IMG/VR virus record: IMGVR_UViG_3300030330_006692
Location: 1 to 64,000 of that record
Direction: 5' to 3' (one strand)
DNA from: a virus
Taxonomy: Duplodnaviria; Caudoviricetes
DNA: 64,000 nt
Shown here: positions 1 to 36,664 of the stretch, one piece after another
Numbering within the stretch: the stretch's first letter is position 1
How the letters are laid out: every line of letters starts with the position of its first letter
The notes under the pieces: generated by a model
What the model saw: the letters and a program-made list of their open reading frames with translations, nothing else
The model's database searches: none
What the model was told of the DNA's origin: nothing
Program-made: the position numbers and the translations under genes

Positions 1-1
1 A

Positions 2-172
2 GTAGGTGATATTGTTAAACGTTTTCTTACCGATCAGTTCGGCATCGTGCTGGACATCAAGCCGCTTGGTTCTATTCATGTGATGTGGACTACACAGGGC
101 GACTCGTTGTTCGGTCCTGGTAGCAAAGAATGGTGTGATGAAAGAAGTTTGGAACTCCTGACATCCTCTTGA
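2..172 (+). CDS. 5'-truncated small SH3/KOW-like protein (VGDIVKR...GIVLDI...VMW...LELL)
   Basis: Hand translation of frame 2; same VGD(I/L)V...GIV...W...LE pattern as many neighbours; stop TGA 170-172. Confidence 0.7.
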   Translation, partial: VGDIVKRFLTDQFGIVLDIKPLGSIHVMWTTQGDSLFGPGSKEWCDERSLELLTSS

Positions 173-232
173 CAACTAATCACTTGCGAACCTCGCTCAC
201 CTATGCTATATTATATAGGTAATCAAGGAGAA
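158..232 (+). promoter_or_regulatory. Early promoter cassette copy 1
   Basis: CTGACA 158, TTGACA 169, -35 TTGCGA 184, TG-c-TATATT 204-212 (17-bp spacer), AAGGAG RBS. Confidence 0.85.
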
Positions 233-236
233 CTAC

Positions 237-1115
237 ATGTCATACAATGGAACCGTCCGCTGCTCTTACTGCTTCCAAACTGGTCACAACAGGCGCACTT
301 GCCCTGAGCTTAGTGAAGCCACTGCGCGCCTGTGGCGCAACGCCAAGAGCAGCTACGATCGCATGGTTAAGGAAGGTAAGACCGAGATGTCCGACATGTA
401 CAAGTCGCGTATGCAAAGCTATGCCGACCGCTACGCAACGCGCACCGGCAAGGATGTCGCGACTGGCGAAGATATTGTCATGACTAAGGAGACCAAGAAA
501 GCAGCCAAGGCAAAGCGACTGAAGAACATCCGCTGCTCGTACTGTGGCAACACTGGACACACGCGCCGGACCTGTCAGGATCTAAAGGACGACAGGCAAG
601 TTTACCTCAAGGCTGTCCTTGACAAGCGGATTGATGCTCTGAACAAAATGCGTGAGCTTGGTGTCGGTGTCGGCTCGCTCGCCAAGATGCAGCGGTATGG
701 CTACTGGCCAGACAAGGAGAACGGTGGAACCACTTGGGGTTCTCGCCTGCGCCCGATGTTGCTGAGAAACATCAACTGGTCAGCGATTCTCCCGCACAAT
801 GACAGGTTGACCAACCTGTACCACTTTCACGATGCTGCACAGCTTTGCGGCGATGGGGATCACTACTCTTGGACCGACGAGGGCTACAACTTTGCTGCCG
901 ATGCTGTGGAGAACGGCTCTCTTACTCCATCTGGAACCATCAATCCGCCCGATGGCTGGTTTGAGGGCAAAGATGTTGACATGTCATATGTCTTCCCTCC
1001 GGGCAAGCTGCGTGACTGGGCTTTCCGCGATGCTCATCAGAGGATCCTCAATGACGATCCCCCACAGAGCCATAACACCGAGCTTTACAAGGCTCGCAAG
1101 TCGCTGGGGATCTAA
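237..1115 (+). CDS. Protein with two CCHC zinc knuckles
   Basis: CSYCFQTGHNRRTC and CSYCGNTGHTRRTC = CX2CX4HX4C; RBS and promoter upstream. Confidence 0.8.
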   Translation: MSYNGTVRCSYCFQTGHNRRTCPELSEATARLWRNAKSSYDRMVKEGKTEMSDMYKSRMQSYADRYATRTGKDVATGEDIVMTKETKKAAKAKRLKNIRCSYCGNTGHTRRTCQDLKDDRQVYLKAVLDKRIDALNKMRELGVGVGSLAKMQRYGYWPDKENGGTTWGSRLRPMLLRNINWSAILPHNDRLTNLYHFHDAAQLCGDGDHYSWTDEGYNFAADAVENGSLTPSGTINPPDGWFEGKDVDMSYVFPPGKLRDWAFRDAHQRILNDDPPQSHNTELYKARKSLGI

Positions 1116-1197
1116 CAATCCCCTTGACATTCTCTTTACAACTTATCCCTTGCAATCTCTGTTCCCCCATGCTATATTATATAGGTAATCAAGGAGA
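1112..1197 (+). promoter_or_regulatory. Early promoter cassette copy 2
   Basis: CTAACA 1112, TTGACA 1124, TTTACA 1135, -35 TTGCAA 1150, TGcTATATT -10 at 1173, AAGGAG. Confidence 0.85.
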
Positions 1198-1203
1198 GAA
1201 CCA

Positions 1204-1689
1204 ATGAAAGTTCGCAACGCCATCAAGAAAGTCAAATCCCACTTCGCCAAGCAAGGCATCGACATCGATGTGCAGCTTATTGGTCATCGCTGGACATTTG
1301 TTCACAACGGCTATGTCGGCTCGTTCCTCGCCAACGGTGCCTGCACCGATGAGGATCAGATGGACGCCGACGCACACAACTTCCACGTGCGCCGTGAGAA
1401 TGACCATAGCTGTCTGTACTCCGACTATCATGCTGGCTCGTTCCGTGATAACATCACGCAAGTTTGTGAGAGTCTGTTGCCGCCTGCGCCTAAGTTCGCC
1501 GTCGGCTCACTCGTGCGAGGCAAGCAGAACAAGCGCGCAATGCGCCAGGGCTACGCTGGCAAGGTGGGTCTTGTGGTGCCGAATGGTACGGGCAGTAGCC
1601 GCTATGCTAAGGTGGCTTGGGTTGGTGAGGCTCAACCTAAGTGGGGCTGGGCGACTTATCCAGAGCGTGACCTTGAATTGGTTAGTTGA
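1204..1689 (+). CDS. Hypothetical early protein with C-terminal SH3-like module
   Basis: C-term KFAVGSLVRG...VGLVV...VAW...DLELVS; RBS upstream. Confidence 0.75.
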   Translation: MKVRNAIKKVKSHFAKQGIDIDVQLIGHRWTFVHNGYVGSFLANGACTDEDQMDADAHNFHVRRENDHSCLYSDYHAGSFRDNITQVCESLLPPAPKFAVGSLVRGKQNKRAMRQGYAGKVGLVVPNGTGSSRYAKVAWVGEAQPKWGWATYPERDLELVS

Positions 1690-1752
1690 CAAATCGCTTG
1701 ACATTTCCCTGACAACAAAATACTTGCACTAAATGACATCCCATGCTATATT
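1686..1752 (+). promoter_or_regulatory. Early promoter cassette copy 3
   Basis: TTGACA 1686, TTGACA 1698, CTGACA 1709, -35 TTGCAC 1724, TGcTATATT -10 at 1747. Confidence 0.85.
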
Positions 1753-1798
1753 TATAGAGTAAGGCAAAGAACTAACACCCTCAACACTGGAGCCCAAC

Positions 1799-2887
1799 AT
1801 GGCTATCGACTTCGCAACATTCCTCAACGTCGCCCCTCACATCCTCAACAGCAAGCTGCCTGTACTTATCCGTGGTCGCCACGGTGTCGGCAAGTCCGAG
1901 GTGGTCTACCAGATCGCCGCAACTCGCGACCTGCCTGTGGTCGAGCGCCGCGCTTCTCAGATGACCGAGGGTGACCTTCTTGGTTTGCCCGATGTGGCTG
2001 ACACGTCCATCAACGGTCGCAAGGCTACCACTTGGAACGCGCCTGACTGGCTTGTAACCGCTTGTGAACAGCCTGTCCTTCTCTTCCTCGATGAGGTGGA
2101 CCGCGCGACCATGGAGGTCCGTCAGGGTCTCTTCGAGTTGACCGACAGCCGCAAACTGAACGGCTGGCACCTCCACGCCGACACCCTGATCGTCGCTGCC
2201 GTCAACGGCGGTGAGCACGGCGCTCAGTACCAAGTTGGCGAGATGGACCCAGCCGAGCTTGACCGCTGGACCGTCTTCGATGTCGAGCCTTCCACCGAGG
2301 ACTGGCTCAAGTGGGCTAACGATCGCGTGCCGTCGGTCGTTTGGGACTTCATTAATCACAACCGTAAGCACTTGGAGCACGAGGGTGACTTCGAGCCTAA
2401 CAAGGTCTACCCTTCCCGTCGCTCATGGAAGCGATACTGCGACACCGCAGAGCCCGCGGGTGTGTTCGGTGAGGACGGAGACCGCGATCTTCTCTTCAAC
2501 CTTGCGACCGCGTTCCTTGGTTTCGAGGCTGCTGTGTCCCTTCGTGACTTCGTTGAGAAGTACGAGTGGCAAGTGACCATTGAGGATATCCTTGACCTTG
2601 GAGACTTCTCCAAGACCGACAAGTGGGGCATCAACGACCACGCTGCTATGATTGAGAAGTTTGAGGCTTCTGGAGTCTTCAAGGATGATCTCGCTGAGAC
2701 TCAGGTCGGTAACCTTGCCGAATACTTTGTATCTCTGCCATCAGAGATCGCCATGAAGCTGTGGACCGTTCTCGGTGACACCGATAACATCAACAATGTT
2801 GTGGCTCTGCACAAGGCGGAGACCACCGACGGTCGCCGGGTCTCCGATCACCTTGTCGAGATCCTTGGTGGCAACACTGAAGACTAA
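1799..2887 (+). CDS. MoxR-type AAA+ ATPase
   Basis: Walker A GRHGVGKS, Walker B LLFLDEVDR, AAVN sensor, DPAELDRW Arg-finger. Confidence 0.9.
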   Translation: MAIDFATFLNVAPHILNSKLPVLIRGRHGVGKSEVVYQIAATRDLPVVERRASQMTEGDLLGLPDVADTSINGRKATTWNAPDWLVTACEQPVLLFLDEVDRATMEVRQGLFELTDSRKLNGWHLHADTLIVAAVNGGEHGAQYQVGEMDPAELDRWTVFDVEPSTEDWLKWANDRVPSVVWDFINHNRKHLEHEGDFEPNKVYPSRRSWKRYCDTAEPAGVFGEDGDRDLLFNLATAFLGFEAAVSLRDFVEKYEWQVTIEDILDLGDFSKTDKWGINDHAAMIEKFEASGVFKDDLAETQVGNLAEYFVSLPSEIAMKLWTVLGDTDNINNVVALHKAETTDGRRVSDHLVEILGGNTED

Positions 2888-2889
2888 TC

Positions 2890-3129
2890 ATGTTTCATCG
2901 ACTACCGCCGATTGACCGTGACCCGGAGGTGGGTGACCTTTGCAGGCTCAATGGAGCCGAGGGTCAAGCCCATCGCTTCCGCGAAAAGCATGGTGTTGGC
3001 ATGATTGTCAAGAAGCACGTGATTAGTGAGAACTCCAGAGCAGTTCAGTACGAGATTAAATGGCTGAAAAGCGAGGAACACATGAGGTTTTTCAAAGATG
3101 ACATCTTTATCATCTCAGACGTGGACTGA
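2890..3129 (+). CDS. Small SH3-like protein
   Basis: EVGDLCRL...GVGMIVKK...YEIKW. Confidence 0.65.
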   Translation: MFHRLPPIDRDPEVGDLCRLNGAEGQAHRFREKHGVGMIVKKHVISENSRAVQYEIKWLKSEEHMRFFKDDIFIISDVD

Positions 3130-3322
3130 TAGGCTAGAAATCGGTGACTTGGTGTTCGCTGTCAGAGATGGCAAGCCCGGTATAGTGCTTGACAAAGAAG
3201 AGATGGCACAAGCCAAATACGGCGACATAGCGAACAAGCGATGGAGGTTCAGGCTTCACATCGACGGAGAGCAAGGGTGGTTAGACGAGGTCCGCATGAG
3301 GACCGGATACAGGATCCCTTGA
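3098..3322 (+). CDS. Small SH3-like protein
   Basis: LEIGDLVFAVRDGKPGIVLDK; start uncertain. Confidence 0.6.
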   Translation: MTSLSSQTWTDRLEIGDLVFAVRDGKPGIVLDKEEMAQAKYGDIANKRWRFRLHIDGEQGWLDEVRMRTGYRIP

Positions 3323-3388
3323 CATTTCCTTGACAACTAAAACCTTGACTTTGCCCCTCCACGATGCTATATTATATATGTAAGGAGA
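3319..3388 (+). promoter_or_regulatory. Early promoter cassette copy 4
   Basis: TTGACA 3319, TTGACA 3330, -35 TTGACT 3345, TGcTATATT -10 at 3368, AAGGAG. Confidence 0.85.
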
Positions 3389-3394
3389 AAGAAC

Positions 3395-4633
3395 ATGTCC
3401 GACGACAAGACCACCAAGCCCTTCAATCTCAACATGCACACTGCTCGCCTGCTCATGCGCGAGCCGTTCTTCGCTGCTCTGTCTCGTCGTATTGACAAGA
3501 TTGAGTCAACTGCGATTCCTACCGCTGGTGTCCGCGTCAACCCTGACTCCGCTCAGTTTGAACTGATGTACAACCCTGAGTTCTTCGCTGCGCTCTCCGA
3601 CGAGCACAAGCAGGGTATCCTCATGCACGAGTTCTACCACCTTGTATTCGAGCACGTGACCAGCCGCAAGCCTGCCGATGGTCTTAAGCGCATCGACAAC
3701 ATTGCGATGGACCTCGCTATCAACTGCCACATTTCCAAGATGCTGCCAAGCGAGTCCAACCCTGGTCCAGAGATCAGCGGTGAGCCCATGCAAGCATGTA
3801 TCCCAGGTGAGGGCATGTTCAAGGATCTTCCTCCTTACAAGACCTACGAGTGGTATCTTGAAGAGCTTAAAAAGATGCAGCAAGAGCAGCAACAAGACGG
3901 CGACGGCGAGGGTGGTCAAGGCAATGGTGACCCTTTTGGTAACATGGACTCCCTTGACTCTCACGATGAGTTTGGCGATGTGGATGGCACGACCCAAGAG
4001 ATTGCCAGTGAGCGCATGAAGGAAGCTATCAAGAAAGCAGCAGAGGAAGCTGAGAAGTCCCGCAACTGGGGCTCCGTGTCCTCCACCATGCGCCAAGACA
4101 TCATGGAGCGCATTGCGACTAAGGTTGACTGGCGCAAGGTTCTTCGATACTTTGTCAAGACTTCACAGCGCGCCGACAAGCGTTCGACGCCTCGTCGTCT
4201 CAATAAGCGGTTCCCAAAGGTCCACCCTGGCAAGCGCGTCCGTCGCCAAGCTAAGATCGCCGTGTCCATCGACCAGTCTGGCTCTGTGGACGATGCGATG
4301 CTCGCCGCGTTCTTCTCCGAGTTGAACAAGCTGGCAGAGATCGCAGAGTTCACCGTCATCCCCTTCGACACCGCGGTAGCCGAGAGCAAGATCTATACAT
4401 GGAAGAAGGGTCAGAACAAGAAGACTGAGCGTGTTCTCACTGGTGGTACATGCTTCAACGCTCCTACCAAGTACGTCAACGAGAAGGGTTTCGATGGTCA
4501 CATCATCCTGACAGACCTGATGGCTCCTAAGCCAATCCCGTCCAAGTGCCAGCGCATGTGGATGACCACTAAGAACTACGCAGCGCGCCCGTACTTCACA
4601 ACTAACGAGCGGATCATTGCCATCGACGGTTGA
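3395..4633 (+). CDS. Metallopeptidase-like + VWA domain protein (DUF2201-type), partner of the MoxR ATPase
   Basis: HEFYH zincin motif, Q/G/D-rich linker, VSIDQSGS MIDAS, GGT, ILTD. Confidence 0.85.
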   Translation: MSDDKTTKPFNLNMHTARLLMREPFFAALSRRIDKIESTAIPTAGVRVNPDSAQFELMYNPEFFAALSDEHKQGILMHEFYHLVFEHVTSRKPADGLKRIDNIAMDLAINCHISKMLPSESNPGPEISGEPMQACIPGEGMFKDLPPYKTYEWYLEELKKMQQEQQQDGDGEGGQGNGDPFGNMDSLDSHDEFGDVDGTTQEIASERMKEAIKKAAEEAEKSRNWGSVSSTMRQDIMERIATKVDWRKVLRYFVKTSQRADKRSTPRRLNKRFPKVHPGKRVRRQAKIAVSIDQSGSVDDAMLAAFFSELNKLAEIAEFTVIPFDTAVAESKIYTWKKGQNKKTERVLTGGTCFNAPTKYVNEKGFDGHIILTDLMAPKPIPSKCQRMWMTTKNYAARPYFTTNERIIAIDG

Positions 4634-4700
4634 CATTTTACTGACACTTTTAGCCTTGATTGTTGAGTCGATCAGTGCTATATTTAATAGACAAAGGAGA
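4630..4700 (+). promoter_or_regulatory. Early promoter cassette copy 5
   Basis: TTGACA 4630, CTGACA 4641, -35 TTGATT 4656, TGcTATATT -10 at 4679, AAGGAG. Confidence 0.85.
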
Positions 4701-4706
4701 GAGATC

Positions 4707-5039
4707 ATGCCCGCAGACTTCACACCCCGCACTAATGACGATGTTATCGCCAAATGGATGGATGGCGTAAGTGCCCGTAATCACAGCAGAACTTTGAAGA
4801 GTGTGGCTTGGGATGATGGCTATGCTGACCTGTACAGCTATGAGCTAAAGATCGGTTCTCGGACTCCAACGGGTTCACTGATCGTTGCGGACTACACAGC
4901 GCCAGCCGGAGGGTTCCAGTCAATGACCACTTCTCAGCACGTCAATCTTGCCAAGGTTCACGCTTGTCGCGAGGGCGCACTCGTAATGCATCCTCTGGTC
5001 TGGGAGGCTTCCGCTCTGAGTGATGAGGTTCCATTCTAG
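4707..5039 (+). CDS. Hypothetical early protein (start corrected to MPADF)
   Basis: ATG 4707 follows the RBS; the upstream in-frame extension runs through the promoter. Confidence 0.75.
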   Translation: MPADFTPRTNDDVIAKWMDGVSARNHSRTLKSVAWDDGYADLYSYELKIGSRTPTGSLIVADYTAPAGGFQSMTTSQHVNLAKVHACREGALVMHPLVWEASALSDEVPF

Positions 5040-5242
5040 TGAGTAGGTTTAAGCCGGGTGATCTTGTGAAGGTCAAAGATGGAACGCACCAAGATGGCAT
5101 GCCTGCTCACCGGGTCGGCATGGTCATCGAGGAAGGCGAGACTTCAAAGTCATACTCTAAAGCGTACACGATCATATTTCTCGGCACTGACCTGCACTTA
5201 AAGTTTCATGAGACATTCTTAGAACCCTTTACAACCCATTGA
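5039..5242 (+). CDS. Small SH3/KOW-like protein
   Basis: FKPGDLVKVK...VGMVIEE...YTIIF...LEP. Confidence 0.75.
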   Translation: MSRFKPGDLVKVKDGTHQDGMPAHRVGMVIEEGETSKSYSKAYTIIFLGTDLHLKFHETFLEPFTTH

Positions 5243-5299
5243 CATCTTAAACCTTGACGATCGCTCTCAGGCGGTTATATTATATGTGTAGAAAGGAGA
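5228..5299 (+). promoter_or_regulatory. Early promoter cassette copy 6
   Basis: TTTACA 5228, TTGACA 5239, -35 TTGACG 5254, TATATT 5276 (16-bp spacer), AAGGAG. Confidence 0.8.
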
Positions 5300-5305
5300 A
5301 AACAC

Positions 5306-5500
5306 ATGCTTGCTATTCCACTCATCCGCACCGACACCGGCGATAGCCTGACACCCATCGAGCGCACCACACTTGCCTGCGAGCAGGTTGTTACTGCTCT
5401 GATGATGCAGGCTACCCTTGACGATCCGCAGATCACTGAACAGGAGCGCGAGACATACACAACCTTGTCCGTCGCTACCATCATTCCAGCAGAGGCATAG
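5306..5500 (+). CDS. Hypothetical early protein
   Basis: ORF directly after promoter and RBS. Confidence 0.7.
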   Translation: MLAIPLIRTDTGDSLTPIERTTLACEQVVTALMMQATLDDPQITEQERETYTTLSVATIIPAEA

Positions 5501-5671
5501 ATGACTGCTTTTGAGATCAAACTCTACAACGAAAAGACGCGCCGGTATCACTTTCTAGCGATGGTCGATGCCGAGAGTAAGGATGAGGCTCTTCAAAAGT
5601 TTATCAATCGCAACAAATATAAGGCGAAGCCCGGTTTTCACCTCTTTGTCAAGACTCCAGGGTGTCTATAA
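5501..5671 (+). CDS. Small hypothetical protein (56 aa, not in ORF track)
   Basis: Hand translation MTAFEIKLYNEK...KTPGCL; abuts upstream stop, TAATG coupling to next gene. Confidence 0.65.
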   Translation: MTAFEIKLYNEKTRRYHFLAMVDAESKDEALQKFINRNKYKAKPGFHLFVKTPGCL

Positions 5672-6006
5672 TGGAACTACCTATCAAAGTAACATGGCCG
5701 CCAATGCTTTACACTGACCGATCCGGTCAAAAGTGGGCTGTTTCTGGTCAGTTCTGGCTCCCAGTGGGCGAGACCGCTACGCTTGACTCCATTGACGATG
5801 TGATGGTTTATGAGCCTCGTAAAGCCTCTCCAGAGCCTTCTAACGTACAGTCTTGGAAGGTCCAAGGCAGTACTGGCAAAAGCTATACAGTGAGCTACGA
5901 TGGGCATGTATGGCGATGTACGTGTGCTGGCTTCGGGTGGCGTCGTAAGTGTCGCCATATCACGGAGAAGATGCACCAGAGCGCTGACAAGTCCTTGACA
6001 ACTTAA
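5671..6006 (+). CDS. SWIM zinc-finger protein
   Basis: VQGSTGKSYTV...WRCTCAGFGWRRKCRH (CxC...CxH). Confidence 0.8.
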   Translation: MELPIKVTWPPMLYTDRSGQKWAVSGQFWLPVGETATLDSIDDVMVYEPRKASPEPSNVQSWKVQGSTGKSYTVSYDGHVWRCTCAGFGWRRKCRHITEKMHQSADKSLTT

Positions 6007-6056
6007 ACCTTGACTTCTACCCGTATCGGTGCTATATTATAAGGGTAGAAAGGAGA
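5984..6056 (+). promoter_or_regulatory. Early promoter cassette copy 7
   Basis: CTGACA 5984, TTGACA 5995, -35 TTGACT 6010, TGcTATATT -10 at 6033, AAGGAG. Confidence 0.85.
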
Positions 6057-6060
6057 AACG

Positions 6061-6165
6061 ATGCAACTTAATCGTGTACTTACCGCAGCCATCGCCGCCG
6101 ATGCCATTTGTATGGGCGCTCTGGTATTTTTCGCAATCCACTGGTTTCAGTGTCCGACAGCATAG
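6061..6165 (+). CDS. 34-aa hydrophobic peptide
   Basis: MQLNRVLTAAIAADAICMGALVFFAIHWFQCPTA directly after RBS. Confidence 0.65.
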   Translation: MQLNRVLTAAIAADAICMGALVFFAIHWFQCPTA

Positions 6166-6174
6166 GAGATAAAA

Positions 6175-6567
6175 ATGTCTGATATTCTAAACATCCGAGT
6201 AACCGAGCGCGAGCTTGACCTTATTATGGACCTACTTCACGAGGCTGGTCTTCGCACTGATGCGGACGGACAGCCCGCAATCGAGATTTGCCACGATCTG
6301 ATGGAGCAAGCCGGTCGCGAGGTCGATGAGTGGGAGTCTACCGATCTTGACGGTCGCACTTTCACTGTCGCAGAGGATCACTTCATCGATCTCGGCATGC
6401 GAGCCCGTGAGATGCGCAAGGCTGAGAAGATGGCGCGCGGTGTGTCAATGGCTGCCGATCGGCGCGCTCATCGCTTCGGTGAGTTTAGCGTCGATGATCC
6501 TAATGATCGCTCTGACCAGCAGCGCGTTGACGTATGGGAACGCCCCAACGACCCAACGAAGTGGTAA
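6175..6567 (+). CDS. Hypothetical early protein
   Basis: AGGAG RBS, intact ORF. Confidence 0.75.
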   Translation: MSDILNIRVTERELDLIMDLLHEAGLRTDADGQPAIEICHDLMEQAGREVDEWESTDLDGRTFTVAEDHFIDLGMRAREMRKAEKMARGVSMAADRRAHRFGEFSVDDPNDRSDQQRVDVWERPNDPTKW

Positions 6568-6571
6568 GTAT

Positions 6572-6682
6572 ATGTGGTTATTGACTTTTTTGCTTGCTGC
6601 CGTTATCGAGGGTGTCCGAGATAACATCATTCTTGCCATTGAACATATCAAGGCTGACGTTGACAACTACTTGACAACTTAA
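6572..6682 (+). CDS. 36-aa hydrophobic-N-terminus peptide
   Basis: MWLLTFLLAAVIEG...NYLTT fills the gap, stop inside cassette copy 8. Confidence 0.45.
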   Translation: MWLLTFLLAAVIEGVRDNIILAIEHIKADVDNYLTT

Positions 6683-6736
6683 ACCTTGCAAACCCCCTCA
6701 CCCTATGTTATATTATAAGTATAGAAAGAAAGGAGA
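6660..6736 (+). promoter_or_regulatory. Early promoter cassette copy 8
   Basis: TTGACA 6660, TTGACA 6671, -35 TTGCAA 6686, TGtTATATT -10 at 6709, AAGGAG. Confidence 0.85.
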
Positions 6737-6743
6737 ACATTCT

Positions 6744-7085
6744 ATGCCGTCAACTCTTGTAAAATCTTATGTTACTCGTCTTCGCAATGCTGCCACTCGC
6801 CTCGATGCACAGCAGGTGATGCAGATTTGGCACGAAGCAGGACTCAACGAAACTCTTGGCGTCTCGGGCGTAGTCCAGATTCATCAGGCTAAGGGTGTTT
6901 CTGATATGATCTTTCATGCTAATCAAGCATGCCAAAAAATCAAGCTACAGCATTTGAACCCAAGCACTGAACTGCCGGAGTTGTCTGAACTTAAAAAGGA
7001 CGAACTCATCCGTCTTTGTAAGTTGCGTTCGGTTGGAGGATATTCTAAGCTGAACCGTGGACAGCTAATCGAGTTGTTGTCATAG
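6744..7085 (+). CDS. Protein with C-terminal Rho-N/SAP-like helical module (start corrected)
   Basis: LSELKKDELIRLCKLRSVGGYSKLNRGQLIELLS resembles Rho N-terminal domain. Confidence 0.7.
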   Translation: MPSTLVKSYVTRLRNAATRLDAQQVMQIWHEAGLNETLGVSGVVQIHQAKGVSDMIFHANQACQKIKLQHLNPSTELPELSELKKDELIRLCKLRSVGGYSKLNRGQLIELLS

Positions 7086-7087
7086 CC

Positions 7088-7160
7088 CTGACATCTTCTT
7101 GACAACTTAATCCTTGCGATCCGCTGCCCCCTATGTTATATTATAAGTATAGAAAGGAGA
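7088..7160 (+). promoter_or_regulatory. Early promoter cassette copy 9
   Basis: CTGACA 7088, TTGACA 7099, -35 TTGCGA 7114, TGtTATATT -10 at 7137, AAGGAG. Confidence 0.85.
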
Positions 7161-7167
7161 TAGTTCT

Positions 7168-7341
7168 ATGATTGAAGTCGGAAGCGTAGTTAAGAGCAAG
7201 TATCTGGTCAGTGGTCACGTTGCCCGCATTGGTCTAGTGACGAAGACTGTTGGAAAGCTCGCAGAGGTATTCTGGCCACATAGCCGGTCAAAGGGCTGGG
7301 TCAAGTGCGAGGACATGGAGGTGATCAATGCAAGTCGGTGA
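7168..7341 (+). CDS. SH3-like micro-protein 1 of tandem array (57 aa)
   Basis: MIEVGSVVKSK...IGLVTK...EVFW...DMEVINASR; not in ORF track. Confidence 0.8.
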   Translation: MIEVGSVVKSKYLVSGHVARIGLVTKTVGKLAEVFWPHSRSKGWVKCEDMEVINASR

Positions 7342-7486
7342 TTTGGTTGTGCAGGTAGGCTGGGAAGCTGACGGGGCAGGTATTGTCCTCAGCACCCGCG
7401 CCCAACGCTATGCTACTGTTTTGTGGCCCGGTGGAGAAGTGGAAATGCTACTCAGCGATCTGGAGGTGATCAATGCAAGTCGGTGA
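7328..7486 (+). CDS. SH3-like micro-protein 2 (52 aa)
   Basis: MQVGDLVVQV...AGIVLS...TVLW...DLEVINASR; GGAGG RBS. Confidence 0.8.
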   Translation: MQVGDLVVQVGWEADGAGIVLSTRAQRYATVLWPGGEVEMLLSDLEVINASR

Positions 7487-7628
7487 TCTGGTAAGCAGCA
7501 ACGGGCATTTGGCAATCGTGATATGCGTCAATGCCTATGAGACATTGATTAAGTGGTTCGATGATGGCATCGTTGAGGATGCCGACAACTATGGGACATC
7601 GCTGGAGGTGGTTAGTGCAAGTCGGTAG
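7473..7628 (+). CDS. SH3-like micro-protein 3 (51 aa)
   Basis: MQVGDLVSS...LAIVIC...LIKW...SLEVVSASR; GGAGG RBS. Confidence 0.8.
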   Translation: MQVGDLVSSNGHLAIVICVNAYETLIKWFDDGIVEDADNYGTSLEVVSASR

Positions 7629-7788
7629 TTTGGTCCGTGAGACTATGGATGGTAACATCGGGATCATCGTGGCGTGGGAAAATGACGGTTGGCTTGTCAA
7701 CTTCCCAAAACACGGCATGGTCTTCCATATGTTGCCGAGACTACTGGAGGTAGTTGACAACTCTCTTGACATTCTCTTGACAACTTAG
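7615..7788 (+). CDS. SH3-like micro-protein 4 (57 aa, GTG start)
   Basis: MQVGSLVRE...IGIIVAW...WLVNF...LLEVVD; GGAGG RBS. Confidence 0.8.
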   Translation: MQVGSLVRETMDGNIGIIVAWENDGWLVNFPKHGMVFHMLPRLLEVVDNSLDILLTT

Positions 7789-7841
7789 TTGTTGACTTTC
7801 GCCTCTCCCGGTGTTATATTATAAGTATAGAAAGAAAGGAG
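7754..7841 (+). promoter_or_regulatory. Early promoter cassette copy 10
   Basis: TTGACA 7754, 7766, 7777; -35 TTGACT 7792; TGtTATATT -10 at 7815; AAGGAG. Confidence 0.85.
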
Positions 7842-7849
7842 TTTATTCT

Positions 7850-8185
7850 ATGCAACGCGCTATCGACCAAATCAAGATCCAAACCACTCGTCAATACAAG
7901 CCAGCGCCAGCGCCTCCAACTCGGAAGCAACTGCAAGGCTGGACTGTCGAGCAGGTTGGCCCGCAGATGTGGGTTGTCTTCCGTCACTCCTCCACACAAG
8001 GCAAGCAAGCTGTGATGGACTTCCCCGATCCTTCATGGGCTGAGTCATTCGCTGCTGGCTGCAACGCCGAGTACTCAAACCCTACCAAGATGAGCGCCAA
8101 GAGCCTGAAGCGCAAAGATGCTAAGTACCTGACCGATGCCGAGAAGGCTGACCTCGCTGCGCTTGAAGCCGGCGAGGGCATTTAG
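7850..8185 (+). CDS. Hypothetical early protein (start corrected to MQRAI)
   Basis: ATG after RBS of cassette 10. Confidence 0.75.
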   Translation: MQRAIDQIKIQTTRQYKPAPAPPTRKQLQGWTVEQVGPQMWVVFRHSSTQGKQAVMDFPDPSWAESFAAGCNAEYSNPTKMSAKSLKRKDAKYLTDAEKADLAALEAGEGI

Positions 8186-29888: not shown

Positions 29889-30097
29889 TGTGGAAAATAT
29901 ATAAATGGAATGGACACTATATTATGGGTGATCTGATCAGCAAGCACTCGAGTGAAGATGCAGCACTTAAAAAAGCTGCTAAAGAAATTAATTTTACTTT
30001 TGCGGAAAAAACCAAAAGAGATAAAGAAATTTTAATTTGGCTAGACAACACAGATCACACACCAGTAGGTGTAATAGTTAAAAAAACACGGGGGTGA
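29888..30097 (+). CDS. Hypothetical protein
   Basis: TAATG coupling; stop overlaps tmRNA 5' end. Confidence 0.6.
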   Translation: MWKIYKWNGHYIMGDLISKHSSEDAALKKAAKEINFTFAEKTKRDKEILIWLDNTDHTPVGVIVKKTRG

Positions 30098-30423
30098 CTT
30101 AGGTTTCGACGTGGTATTGAAAAAATTAAATGCAAGCAGGAAAGATACATCCTTAAAAGTTCAAAAACAATAGTTGCAAATAACAACACACACTTCGAAC
30201 AGCGCTTAGCCGCTTAGTAGGGAGGCTGATTAGAGCCTTCTATCCAATCTAGTCAACACAACAGATCAGTTGCAAAAATCACAAAACTTATCGCAACAGG
30301 ATGGTAAGCGATATTTTACAACCATCTATCTTTGTCAGTTCGTGATAGAAACTGAATAAGCTTGTGAATGACTTAATTTTGAATTTATTGCGGACGCGGG
30401 TTCGAATCCCGCCGCCTCCACCA
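30090..30423 (+). ncRNA. ssrA: tmRNA
   Basis: Acceptor GGGGGTG/CGCCTCC with G3-U, ACCA 3' end, T-arm GCGGG-TTCGAAT-CCCGC, tag ORF 30176-30217 ANNNTHFEQRLAA followed by TAGTAG. Confidence 0.95.
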
Positions 30424-31629: not shown

Positions 31630-32145
31630 ATGATGAAAAGTTTTAAAACTTTAAAATTAGACTCCTCTTTTCGCCCTGTAGAGGTAATAGATGCAATCGA
31701 AGCTTTGGTTTTGTGTATTGTTGGAAAAGCAATGCCAGTAGAAGAATACACCGAAGAAATAAGAACTGTGACAAGAAAATTTGTATTGCCGTCTGTCATA
31801 GCTTTAAAAAAGGTTGTTAAATTTAGATTTACCACCATGGCACCATCCAGAGATAACATTTTTTGGAGAGACAATAATCAATGTCAATATTGTACTAAGG
31901 TTTTTTTAAAAGAAGAGCTTACTCTCGATCATGTGAAACCACGTAGCAAAGGTGGCAAAAATACATGGCTTAATTTAGTTACAGCATGTAAAAAATGTAA
32001 TCAAAAAAAAGGCAATAGAACACCGACTGAGGCTAATATGCCTTTATTGCGTGCTCCATTCAAACCAAAAACAAATATCCTAAGATCTGTAAACAAAAGT
32101 CAAATAAATCCAATATGGAAAGAATATTTGTGGGGAATGTCTTGA
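31630..32145 (+). CDS. HNH endonuclease
   Basis: RDNNQCQYC...TLDHVKPRSKGG...NLVTACKKCNQKKG. Confidence 0.92.
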   Translation: MMKSFKTLKLDSSFRPVEVIDAIEALVLCIVGKAMPVEEYTEEIRTVTRKFVLPSVIALKKVVKFRFTTMAPSRDNIFWRDNNQCQYCTKVFLKEELTLDHVKPRSKGGKNTWLNLVTACKKCNQKKGNRTPTEANMPLLRAPFKPKTNILRSVNKSQINPIWKEYLWGMS

Positions 32146-32170
32146 CACCAACGACATTGAATGTTATTAT
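32142..32170 (+). promoter_or_regulatory. sigma70-type promoter
   Basis: TTGACA-N17-TATTAT with extended TG. Confidence 0.65.
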
Positions 32171-32176
32171 TGTATT

Positions 32177-32449
32177 ATGGAATACATAAAATGTTATCTA
32201 TCTGAGGTAGGGCATAAAAACTTTTTTTATCCCACCGAAAACACTGCTTTAATTCCTAAAGGTTGTGAATACAATATTCTTCCTTGGATTGGTGGACAAG
32301 CTAAAAGCTTGACGCCCGTTAAAATAAAAAAAAGTTGCGTGGTACCACTAAACATGTGCCCACCAGCCACCATAAAAGGTACGACTGTGGTGTGGATAGA
32401 TAATAGTTTATTGCCCCTTAGCTCAGTTGGTAGAGCAAATGACTGTTAA
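32177..32449 (+). CDS. Hypothetical protein (3' end overlaps tRNA)
   Basis: ATG just after promoter. Confidence 0.5.
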   Translation: MEYIKCYLSEVGHKNFFYPTENTALIPKGCEYNILPWIGGQAKSLTPVKIKKSCVVPLNMCPPATIKGTTVVWIDNSLLPLSSVGRANDC

Positions 32450-32487
32450 TCATTGGGTCCGCGGTTCAAGCCCGCGAGGGGCAGCCA
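32412..32487 (+). tRNA. tRNA-Asn(GTT), canonical
   Basis: 76-nt cloverleaf TGCCCCT/AGGGGCA, anticodon loop CT-GTT-AA, G73, CCA. Confidence 0.95.
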
Positions 32488-33012: not shown

Positions 33013-33075
33013 ATGGAAAAATGTGAATGTTGTGGCTGCATTGCACCATGTAATTGTAATTGCTGCTGCAAATAA
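33013..33075 (+). CDS. Metallothionein-like 20-aa peptide
   Basis: MEKCECCGCIAPCNCNCCCK; AGGAGG RBS 8 nt upstream; CCTACTTA motif. Confidence 0.7.
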   Translation: MEKCECCGCIAPCNCNCCCK

Positions 33076-33078
33076 ACC

Positions 33079-33173
33079 CCGCGCTATTCTGCTCGCTTTA
33101 TAAGCAGGACGTGGTTGCCGATCGTCACGTAGGCAAAGGTTTCCGGTTATCCTAGTTCTAGACAGAAAACCGG
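33079..33173 (+). ncRNA. Candidate three-hairpin structured RNA
   Basis: CCGCG..TTCTGCT/AGCAGGA..CGTGG; TTGCC/GGCAA; CCGGTT/AACCGG. Confidence 0.35.
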
Positions 33174-33182
33174 TTTTATTTA

Positions 33183-33278
33183 TGGGGGGTGGCGGAATTG
33201 GCAAACGCACCCGGTTGTTTCCCGGGCGGTGATTCATGAAAATGCACCTTGAAGGTTCGAATCCTTCCCCTCCAGCCA
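33183..33278 (+). tRNA. Atypical class II (long variable arm) tRNA with GTT anticodon
   Basis: TGGGGGG/CCCTCCA acceptor, G73, CCA; CCCGG-TTGTTTC-CCGGG anticodon arm; variable arm GGTG..CACC; GAAGG-TTCGAAT-CCTTC. Confidence 0.85.
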
Positions 33279-35700: not shown

Positions 35701-36024
35701 ATGAGTAAAGAAAAAGTAACTAATATCGAAGAAATTCTTGATGCAGCTATAAGCGAAGAAGAAGCTCATTCAAATGAAATGCTAGCCATGGCAGTTAAAT
35801 CAGATACGGAACTAAAGAATATTCTTGTTGAATATGTTGGAACAAAGTTTGACAAGGAAGAGGTTACCGTAAATATGATTGCAGAAACAATGGCGCACGA
35901 ATTCCCAGAGTTTGTTTTTGCTTTTGCGGAAGAGAATTTTTTGCGTGGTTATCAATTAGGATTAGACGATGCTTATAAAACACTTGATGGAAAAACACCA
36001 GACTTCACAACAAAAGAACAGTGA
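35701..36024 (+). CDS. Hypothetical protein
   Basis: Promoter TTGTAA-N17-TATATT (35654) and AAGGAG. Confidence 0.7.
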   Translation: MSKEKVTNIEEILDAAISEEEAHSNEMLAMAVKSDTELKNILVEYVGTKFDKEEVTVNMIAETMAHEFPEFVFAFAEENFLRGYQLGLDDAYKTLDGKTPDFTTKEQ

Positions 36025-36664
36025 CTTCTACACGCCAACAGGCATTCACGTTTATTTTAAAGAACCAGTTGCGTCAGACATTGATGTAGAGAATGTTGTA
36101 GCAAAATTAGAATCAAAATTACCTGCACACCTTTTAGAAGAAATTGAAATGATAATTGTGGGTTGGTTTAAGGAATTTGAAGAGCGTGATATTAATGCTT
36201 TTTATGATGGCGGAACAATATATGTATCTAATCTACAAGATGACGAAGATGATATGTATGACGATCTTGTGCACGAAGTGGCGCACTCAATCGAGTCACC
36301 GCATGGATATTATTTATATGCGGATGAAAAAATCAAGAATGAATTTCTTGCCAAGCGAGCAATGTTGCATGATATTTTGTGGAATATGGGATACAAGACG
36401 CCTAAATCATTTTTTAACGAGATTGAATATAATCAAGAATTTGATGATTTTCTCCACAAAAAAGTTGGATATGATAAATTAGCAAGAGTAATGCAAGGGT
36501 TGTTTATTAACGTATACGCAGCAACCTCTCTAAGAGAATACTTTGCAACAGCATTTACAGATTTTTATTTAGATAGTAATCATAATTTTCTTCAAAAAGT
36601 ATCTCCAGCAGTGTATGAAAAATTAATTAATATTCAAAATCAAGAATTACTTGACTCCATGTAA
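35969..36664 (+). CDS. Zinc-metalloprotease-like protein
   Basis: HEVAH...REYFATAF. Confidence 0.65.
   Translation: MLIKHLMEKHQTSQQKNSDFYTPTGIHVYFKEPVASDIDVENVVAKLESKLPAHLLEEIEMIIVGWFKEFEERDINAFYDGGTIYVSNLQDDEDDMYDDLVHEVAHSIESPHGYYLYADEKIKNEFLAKRAMLHDILWNMGYKTPKSFFNEIEYNQEFDDFLHKKVGYDKLARVMQGLFINVYAATSLREYFATAFTDFYLDSNHNFLQKVSPAVYEKLINIQNQELLDSM

Follow-up and report, generated by a model that had tools for sequence, protein, structure and literature searches.

The 64,000-nucleotide (nt) stretch analysed here, referred to below as the window (positions 1 to 64,000 of the IMG/VR virus record IMGVR_UViG_3300030330_006692, Caudoviricetes), carries at 33183..33278 (+) a long transfer RNA (tRNA) gene in which a leucine-type class II body is combined with the asparagine anticodon GUU. 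The gene is a member of a conserved family of marine T4-like phages. The body is that of a tRNA-Leu without the leucine determinant, and it has acquired and strictly kept the marks of the amino acid that corresponds to its anticodon. In bacteria and phages only the tRNAs of Leu, Ser, Tyr and Sec have long variable arms, and a purine is nearly universal at position 37. The family breaks both rules, having a long arm together with an asparagine-type anticodon and a pyrimidine at position 37, and it is abundant and strongly conserved (at least 120 metagenome loci).

The gene was called by ARAGORN as a 96-nt tRNA(gtt) on the plus strand and was matched by the Rfam tRNA family RF00005 with 47.3 bits (gathering score 29, E 6.9e-8). 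It consists of 93 nt up to G73 (33275) followed by an encoded CCA, and the five-arm cloverleaf, which is also supported by covariation, is its minimum-free-energy structure (RNAfold). As read from the sequence, the acceptor stem has 7 base pairs (bp), among them U1-A72 and G4.U69. The D arm (33192..33208, +), which a 19-nt word used for scanning covers, is of the leucine type, with a 3-bp stem and an 11-nt loop containing A14, A15, G18, G19 and A20a; the T arm is standard with a 5-bp stem. The 5-bp anticodon stem (CCCGG/CCGGG) encloses the loop U32 U33 G34 U35 U36 U37 C38 (33215..33221, +), in which the anticodon occupies 33217-33219 and U37 lies at 33220. The variable region of 24 nt (33227..33250, +) was assigned from the sequence and the fold and is made up of one unpaired nucleotide, a 7-bp stem (GGUG/CACC plus AUU/AAU) with one bulged G, and UU. 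ARAGORN, Rfam and the fold thus confirmed every feature given in an earlier, sequence-only reading of this DNA, namely a 96-nt tRNA with a GTT anticodon, U1-A72, G73, the loop TT-GTT-TC and a long paired arm. An intron or an 8-nt anticodon loop was ruled out, as 17 stem variants pair perfectly around a 7-nt loop, and the single ARAGORN call of 'gttt' (L285) is an alternative parse of this same loop. A tRNA-Sec or an allo-tRNA was also ruled out, since the acceptor and T stems have 7 and 5 bp, respectively, whereas a branch of 12 or 13 bp in an 8/4, 9/3 or 8/5 arrangement would be required.

IMG/VR was scanned either by the anticodon arm or by the D arm, in the latter case with no constraint on the loop or on the entire anticodon arm; metagenomes were scanned with the anticodon arm unconstrained. 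The same long tRNA was found in 12 IMG/VR contigs. The metagenome scan matched at least 120 loci, mostly from marine samples, Tara included, among the matches listed, and gave at least 81 distinct family sequences, 74 of which could be cleanly parsed. Conservation in relatives, which had been set as a check on the sequence-only reading, was therefore found in both collections. The total is at least 93 distinct sequences from independent assemblies, with compensatory changes in every stem. When 13 IMG/VR sequences were aligned, 99% of the cells were paired, compared with only 50-62% in slid registers, and nine of the 24 pairs had changed on both sides, a value reached in none of 500 shuffles. 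Among the metagenome members the anticodon stem occurs in 17 different versions and the acceptor stem in 16, every one of them paired, and the pair 26-44 alternates between G.U and A.C. The variable regions of the 74 parsed members range from 16 to 42 nt; they always fold, typically with 7 bp, and are free in sequence. A pseudogene, a chance cloverleaf or an assembly artefact is practically excluded by this conservation and by the compensatory changes in every stem; two of these, a pseudo-tRNA and an artefact, had been named beforehand as grounds for abandoning the idea, and the covariation in the 13 sequences and the invariant loop contradict both. A sample of 807 bacterial genomes yielded no instance of the family signature, and blastn against 50,697 GenBank phage records, a set that may lack records close to the window, gave no match. 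The exact anticodon arm had at least 119 matches in GTDB genomes, none of them within a tRNA among the matches listed; these were attributed to chance occurrences in GC-rich DNA and a cellular origin was rejected.

The leucine-type character of the body was established from the D arm and from the geometry of the variable arm. In viral contigs the 19-nt D-arm word was found in 78 tRNA-Leu calls, 11 calls of the family, three oddities and no tRNA-Ser or tRNA-Tyr; in the pooled viral and metagenome set it was exact in 67 distinct tRNA-Leu, again with no tRNA-Ser or tRNA-Tyr. Edit distances to the word were also determined for bystander class II tRNAs of the same loci, which had not been selected by it, and the medians were 4 for Leu, 6.5 for Tyr and 8 for Ser. 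The unpaired nucleotides before and after the variable stem number 1/2 in the family, which is the leucine mode, compared with 1/1 in tRNA-Ser and 1/3 in tRNA-Tyr. A15, U48, G18G19 and A20a are invariant in the family and are the tertiary elements listed for Escherichia coli LeuRS (PMC9976931). The tRNA-Leu(UAA) of the window phage itself has the same D-arm layout as the long tRNA. With a paired long arm, a 3-bp D stem, A15-U48 and two unpaired nucleotides after the arm, the body is leucine-type, not serine-type, and of leucine-type ancestry. The description of the D arm in the sequence-only reading as class II was correct in its class and too broad in being generic. The variable stem has been lengthened, measuring 7 bp in the family (median region 24 nt) against 4 bp and 15 nt in phage tRNA-Leu and 5 bp and 17 nt in tRNA-Ser. 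As a separate observation, one viral contig (L162) has a UUA (stop-reading) anticodon on a Leu body, and long tRNAs with the Leu D arm are present in the viral contigs L164 and L143; the ARAGORN calls for two long oddities were Ile(tat) and Val(gac).

The acceptor end was compared with that of 724 distinct phage and metagenome tRNAs. All 74 parsed family members have U1-A72, G2-C71, G3-C70 and G73, and 73 have G4.U69. In the comparison set, U1-A72 together with G73 occurs in 42/55 tRNA-Asn, 11/22 tRNA-Gln, 1/106 class II tRNA-Leu and no tRNA-Ser, and the full set of U1-A72, G73, G2-C71 and G3-C70 was found outside the family in tRNA-Gln (8/22). LeuRS depends crucially on A73, and both LeuRS and TyrRS have G73 as an antideterminant; asparagine identity consists of the three anticodon bases and G73 and has been transplanted into a tRNA-Lys; the amidotransferase (GatCAB) reads U1-A72 on tRNA-Asn and tRNA-Gln; and most bacterial tRNA-Ser have 'absolutely conserved' pairs G1-C72 and G2-C71 (PMC9976931). 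The leucine element A73 is thus replaced by G73 throughout the family, while the asparagine elements are present, GUU in 68/74 and G73 in 74/74 members; U1-A72, which 42/55 canonical phage tRNA-Asn possess, is universal. The canonical form of a tRNA-Asn, a class I body with A37 beside U36, is absent, as the variable region has 24 nt and position 37 is U. Of the serine set, the family has the long arm together with G73 and G2-C71; G1-C72 is missing, and both the D arm and the flanks of the variable stem are leucine-type.

In the search with the anticodon arm left free, the 74 parsed members were invariant at U33, G34, U35, U37 and C38. Position 32 is C or U, and position 36 is U in 68, C in five and G in one. 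A37 is present in 24/24 class I tRNA-Asn of the viral sample, and a pyrimidine 37 was found in 9/526 distinct viral tRNAs. Three of the nine are unrelated class I phage tRNA-Asp(GUC) with U37 in the loop C-U-G-U-C-U-A (L229:5481-5553, L185:3913-3986 and L211:3660-3734), so that a pyrimidine 37 may be a recurrent phage solution for tRNAs with GUN anticodons.

The five GUC members (L291, L296, L316, L356 and L371) have variable arms of up to 42 nt and lengths of up to 110-111 nt, and their differing stems and arms indicate a living lineage. L356 stands in the usual family position, between a canonical tRNA-Asn and a tRNA-Thr. The GUG member (L342) has kept G73. In L304 the canonical loop C-U-G-U-U-A-A is found on a class II body with a short arm (3-bp variable stem), directly adjoining a canonical tRNA-Asn within a cluster of 16 tRNAs. 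Another relative (L256:3367-3458, +), of identical sequence in five contigs (L256, L284, L294, L314 and L346), shares the U1-A72/G73 acceptor type, the Leu D arm and the long arm; its 5-bp anticodon stem closes a loop of only 5 nt without U33. This pentaloop relative cannot decode. Its source L256 is a different phage with scattered tRNAs, some of them with insertions.

The window is part of a 96.5-kb virus record estimated to be 49% complete. Its GC content is about 37%; positions 1-8000 have 50-53% GC and the remainder of the window 34-41%. The relatives that bear the long tRNA measure 162-196 kb, two being near-complete, and encode a T4-type Gp23 capsid protein (E about 1e-60). Genes for PhoH, Hsp20, an HNH endonuclease and nucleotidyltransferases lie around the long tRNA. 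An open reading frame (ORF) of 231 amino acids at 35969-36664 (+) gave sub-threshold Pfam matches to the zinc-metallopeptidase families ATLF (25.7 bits) and Peptidase_M90 (19.3 bits). A canonical class I tRNA-Asn(GUU) of 76 nt with the loop C-U-G-U-U-A-A, U1-A72 and G73 was located at 32412..32487 (+) (ARAGORN; Rfam 67.1 bits), 696 nt upstream of the long tRNA, in agreement with the distance of about 700 bp first noticed. A canonical tRNA-Asn lies within 4-3300 nt of the long tRNA in 20 of the 30 loci with flanks of at least 2 kb on both sides and is the commonest neighbour of the family, followed by transfer-messenger RNA (tmRNA), tRNA-Met and tRNA-Thr(UGU). It was not found in the 161.7-kb relative (89% complete), where the long tRNA is present. 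The tRNAs of the complete 195.7-kb relative are Ile(UAU), Arg(UCU), Met, Lys(UUU), Thr(UGU), Asn(GUU), Leu(UAA) and the long tRNA. The sets of the complete relatives (G003: L014, L015; G001: L016, L017) consist almost entirely of readers of codons starting with A (Ile-UAU, Arg-UCU, Met, Lys-UUU, Thr-UGU and Asn-GUU, plus Leu-UAA or Gln-UUG). Such readers form the class modified to N6-threonylcarbamoyladenosine at position 37 (t6A37), and the sets hold all three targets of the PARIS nuclease AriB. A one-piece tmRNA with the tag ANNNTHFEQRLAA is encoded at 30090-30423 (+) (ARAGORN; Rfam 121.9 bits). The tags of the relatives vary (ANNNLHFEQRLAA, ANNNLHFQQRLTA and ANNNNHFDSVRLAA), and the tmRNA gene is often a few kb from the long tRNA, immediately upstream of it in L253.

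The long tRNA is preceded by a conserved structured leader of 105 nt (33078..33182, +) that adjoins its 5' end and is as conserved as the tRNA itself; in seven IMG/VR contigs and 38 metagenome loci it lies 0-10 nt from the tRNA. RNAalifold (24 sequences) gave a leader hairpin with a loop of variable size, and two leader helices are supported by covariation. The second helix (5 bp) shows clear double changes, with two pairs each alternating between U-A and C-G, and the third, which is invariant, surrounds a palindromic hexamer whose changes keep it palindromic in every case. The stretch 33078-33182 has no match in Rfam. It may be a co-transcribed stable RNA freed by RNase P, or a leader that serves in processing or regulation. 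Just upstream of it, at 33014-33076 (+), an ORF of 20 codons has nine cysteines and a strong ribosome-binding site; this micro-ORF is kept in 6/7 close relatives and is missing in L255, which retains the leader and the tRNA. A sigma-70-like sequence at 32142..32170 (+), with 11/12 matches and an extended TG, was identified by a consensus scan as a consensus match only; it could drive a unit of tRNA-Asn, ORF158, micro-ORF, leader and class II tRNA. No terminator-like site was found between this candidate promoter and the long tRNA.

The explanation that we tentatively prefer, with a confidence somewhat short of an even chance, is that the long tRNA is a functional tRNA-Leu body re-identified for the asparagine system, which would read AAY codons while evading host defences or the need for t6A. 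It would probably maintain the reading of asparagine codons under conditions in which the normal tRNA comes under attack or is insufficiently modified. The charging enzyme, the decoding and the resistance are the parts of this explanation that we infer, as follows. A change of A73 to G73 would have removed LeuRS identity, accompanied by changes of G1-C72 to U1-A72 and of the anticodon to GUU. Charging would be carried out by the AsnRS of the host, or by a non-discriminating AspRS and then GatCAB, through the anticodon, G73 and U1-A72; in the established structures of their complexes, class IIb synthetases approach the tRNA with its variable region facing the solvent. The charged tRNA would then read AAY codons. 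The class II body and U37-C38 together would remove the body contacts, the U36-A-A-U motif and the A37/t6A37 modification site at once, and the long tRNA would serve, next to the efficient canonical tRNA-Asn of the phage, as a backup that is proof against defences or independent of modification. A second, odd asparagine tRNA is likely kept because its normal counterpart is vulnerable. G73, G10 and C38 are determinants for E. coli AspRS and are kept by the GUC variants, so that the single change U36C gives a coherent tRNA-Asp.

The search for enzymes covered the genome to which the window belongs, two near-complete relatives and a third relative that is 89% complete. No aminoacyl-tRNA synthetase of the Pfam type tRNA-synt_2 (Asp/Asn/Lys) or tRNA-synt_2b (Ser/Thr/Pro) and no tRNA-guanine transglycosylase (TGT/DpdA) gene was found in these four. 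A dedicated phage-encoded charging enzyme of the class IIb or SerRS type was therefore rejected, and host enzymes must act on the long tRNA. A search for T4 Rnl1 among the phage genes, which had no positive control, gave no match.

The predicted resistance was assessed by comparison with known anticodon nucleases. AriB of the PARIS system in E. coli cleaves the tRNAs for Lys(UUU), Thr(UGU) and Asn(GUU), all with U36-A-A-U; cleavage is abolished by a single change of U39, and recognition depends in addition on contacts distal to the anticodon loop; infection against PARIS is restored by T5 phage variants of the same three tRNAs; and PrrC requires the cyclic form, ct6A37 (PMC12409363). The canonical tRNA-Asn of the window has U36-A-A-U-C and the long tRNA U36-U-C-C-C; the nuclease motif U36-A-A-U is thus lost, with the qualification that it is the motif of an E. 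coli enzyme and may not apply to the host. The suggestion of the sequence-only reading that the tRNA is nuclease-resistant or a decoy is compatible with the data, and resistance forms part of the explanation preferred here. Resistance to colicin E5 as its rationale was rejected, the Y-G-U-N determinant being retained.

Several observations weigh against an asparagine isoacceptor. With U37 the tRNA loses t6A37 and its stacking on the weak U36-A pair, and AAY decoding should be poor. A D-loop base is an antideterminant for GatCAB in tRNA-Asp (PMC9976931), and by analogy the long D loop may hinder this enzyme. The third anticodon base varies (C in five, G in one) with the acceptor end unchanged, and the GUG member, since it keeps G73, cannot be a normal HisRS substrate; such drift fits a reader of U33-G34-U35 better than a strict asparagine identity. 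The pentaloop relative (L256 type, five contigs) is incapable of decoding. The phage Lys and Thr tRNAs keep U-A-A-U-C, so that avoidance of an E. coli-type PARIS is not general.

A second group of explanations, possible but doubtful, is recoding or sabotage. Either the anticodon and the amino acid would be mismatched (Ser, Asp or Gln), making AAY or GAY codons ambiguous, or a host enzyme that reads UGU would be titrated. The routes proposed for a mismatch are serine through the over-long arm, aspartate through AspRS without amidation and glutamine through the Gln-type acceptor end.

The titration version, which we regard as unlikely, is a decoy or competitor with no decoding role, which would occupy a host protein that reads U33-G34-U35, such as a nuclease of the colicin E5 kind or a tRNA-guanine transglycosylase; the real Asn, Asp, His and Tyr tRNAs would be spared or queuosine precursors diverted. 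The invariance of U33, G34, U35, U37 and C38 fits such a role, with U, C or G at position 36 of one and the same body and acceptor, as do the orthologous position of the GUC variant L356 beside a canonical Asn and not an Asp gene, the retention of G73 in the GUG member, the weakened decoding expected of U37 and the existence of the pentaloop relative. Colicin E5 needs merely Y-G-U-N in the anticodon arm (PMC1635277). The retained Y-G-U would, however, make the long tRNA a substrate of an E5-type enzyme and not an inhibitor. An anticodon-arm decoy would also have no need of the invariant Asn/Gln-like acceptor end, the often encoded CCA, the canonical T arm or the covarying tertiary pair 26-44 (G.U or A.C), and the four phage genomes searched yielded no TGT/DpdA gene.

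A serine mistranslator is less likely still. In this case SerRS would charge the tRNA through the long arm, G73, G2-C71 and C11-G24, placing serine at Asn or Asp codons. SerRS depends on the long arm and is indifferent to the anticodon (PMC9976931); drift among GUN anticodons would suit such anticodon-blind charging, and the 7-bp variable stem exceeds that of phage tRNA-Leu (4 bp) and even tRNA-Ser (5 bp). The sequence-only reading had proposed serine insertion at Asn codons as one option, from the recognition of the long arm by SerRS, and the part of that proposal that stands is that G73, G2-C71, C11-G24 and the 7-bp arm, all present, are compatible with SerRS. The Leu D arm, Leu flanks and U1-A72 tell against it: bacterial tRNA-Ser has G1-C72, no sampled phage tRNA-Ser has U1-A72, and E. 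coli SerRS reads a Ser-specific tertiary shape (PMC9976931). In addition, the variable stem of L304 is just 3 bp, and mistranslation gives no clear reason for keeping U37-C38.

Delivery of aspartate, or of a wrongly amidated product, was judged quite improbable. An AspRS-type enzyme would charge the forms with GUU and those with GUC alike, favoured in this by C38, G10, G73 and the lack of t6A37, and GatCAB would then either reject the class II body (Asp at Asn codons) or accept U1-A72 (for GUC, Asn at Asp codons). C38 and G10 are invariant, GUU and GUC variants occur on one body, yeast tRNA-Asn has in t6A37 an antideterminant against AspRS, and U1-A72 is an amidotransferase determinant (PMC9976931). 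The argument is nevertheless purely inferential, and the phage's own Asn or Asp codons would all be affected by such recoding.

A non-ribosomal role, in which the tRNA would donate its aminoacyl group to a peptide or cell-envelope reaction or would act with its leader as a regulatory RNA, is very improbable. The leader adjoining the tRNA, the nine-cysteine micro-ORF upstream in 6/7 close relatives and the pentaloop relative that cannot decode would accord with it. The leader and micro-ORF are missing from many family members, though, and in its T loop and acceptor the long tRNA matches an elongator tRNA. The aminoacyl donor envisaged in the sequence-only reading found no support, as no aminoacyl-transferase gene was seen near the long tRNA.

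If the long tRNA is charged with asparagine, one complete tRNA body can replace another without a change of identity, which would be an extreme form of escape from tRNA-targeting immunity and a natural experiment on the tolerance of AsnRS, GatCAB, EF-Tu and the ribosome for a class II body and for the loss of t6A37. If it receives a wrong amino acid, it is a mistranslator of natural, viral origin. In addition, it lends itself to tRNA engineering as a ready-made scaffold that looks orthogonal.

Neither a class II tRNA for Asn or Asp nor a conserved pyrimidine 37 in phage tRNAs was found described in the searchable literature, and the long tRNA was compared with the nearest known systems. With tRNA-Leu it shares the D-arm word, A15-U48, G18G19, A20a, the 1/2 unpaired arm flanks and the 7/5 acceptor and T stems, but it differs in G73 (A73 in Leu), U1-A72 (G1-C72 in Leu), the GUU or GUC anticodon, a variable stem of about 7 bp (about 4 bp in Leu) and U37 (purine in Leu). 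With canonical tRNA-Asn(GUU), which is usually co-encoded, it has in common GUU, G73 and U1-A72, the identity elements for AsnRS and GatCAB; it differs in being class II with a variable region of 16-42 nt, in having U37-C38 in place of A37(t6A)-A38 and in acceptor pairs 2-4, which are of the tRNA-Gln type. Like the phage tRNAs that evade defences (T5 against PARIS AriB, PMC12409363; anticodon-loop variants, PMC10264068), it is an isoacceptor altered in the 3' part of the loop, the stem and the body and lacks U36-A-A-U. Those tRNAs, however, keep a class I body and a purine 37 with few substitutions, whereas here the whole body is exchanged, position 37 is a pyrimidine and the resistance is only predicted. 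Allo-tRNAs (PMC5389517) and Leu-bodied phage suppressors are, like the present family, long-arm tRNAs with the anticodons of other amino acids and are known mainly from metagenomes. The likeness to such anticodon-blind class II chimeras is superficial only: allo-tRNAs have 8/4 or 9/3 branches and Ser or Ala identity in contrast to the 7/5 arrangement found here, and Leu-bodied suppressors keep A73, whereas the family has lost A73 and gained acceptor marks that match its anticodon.

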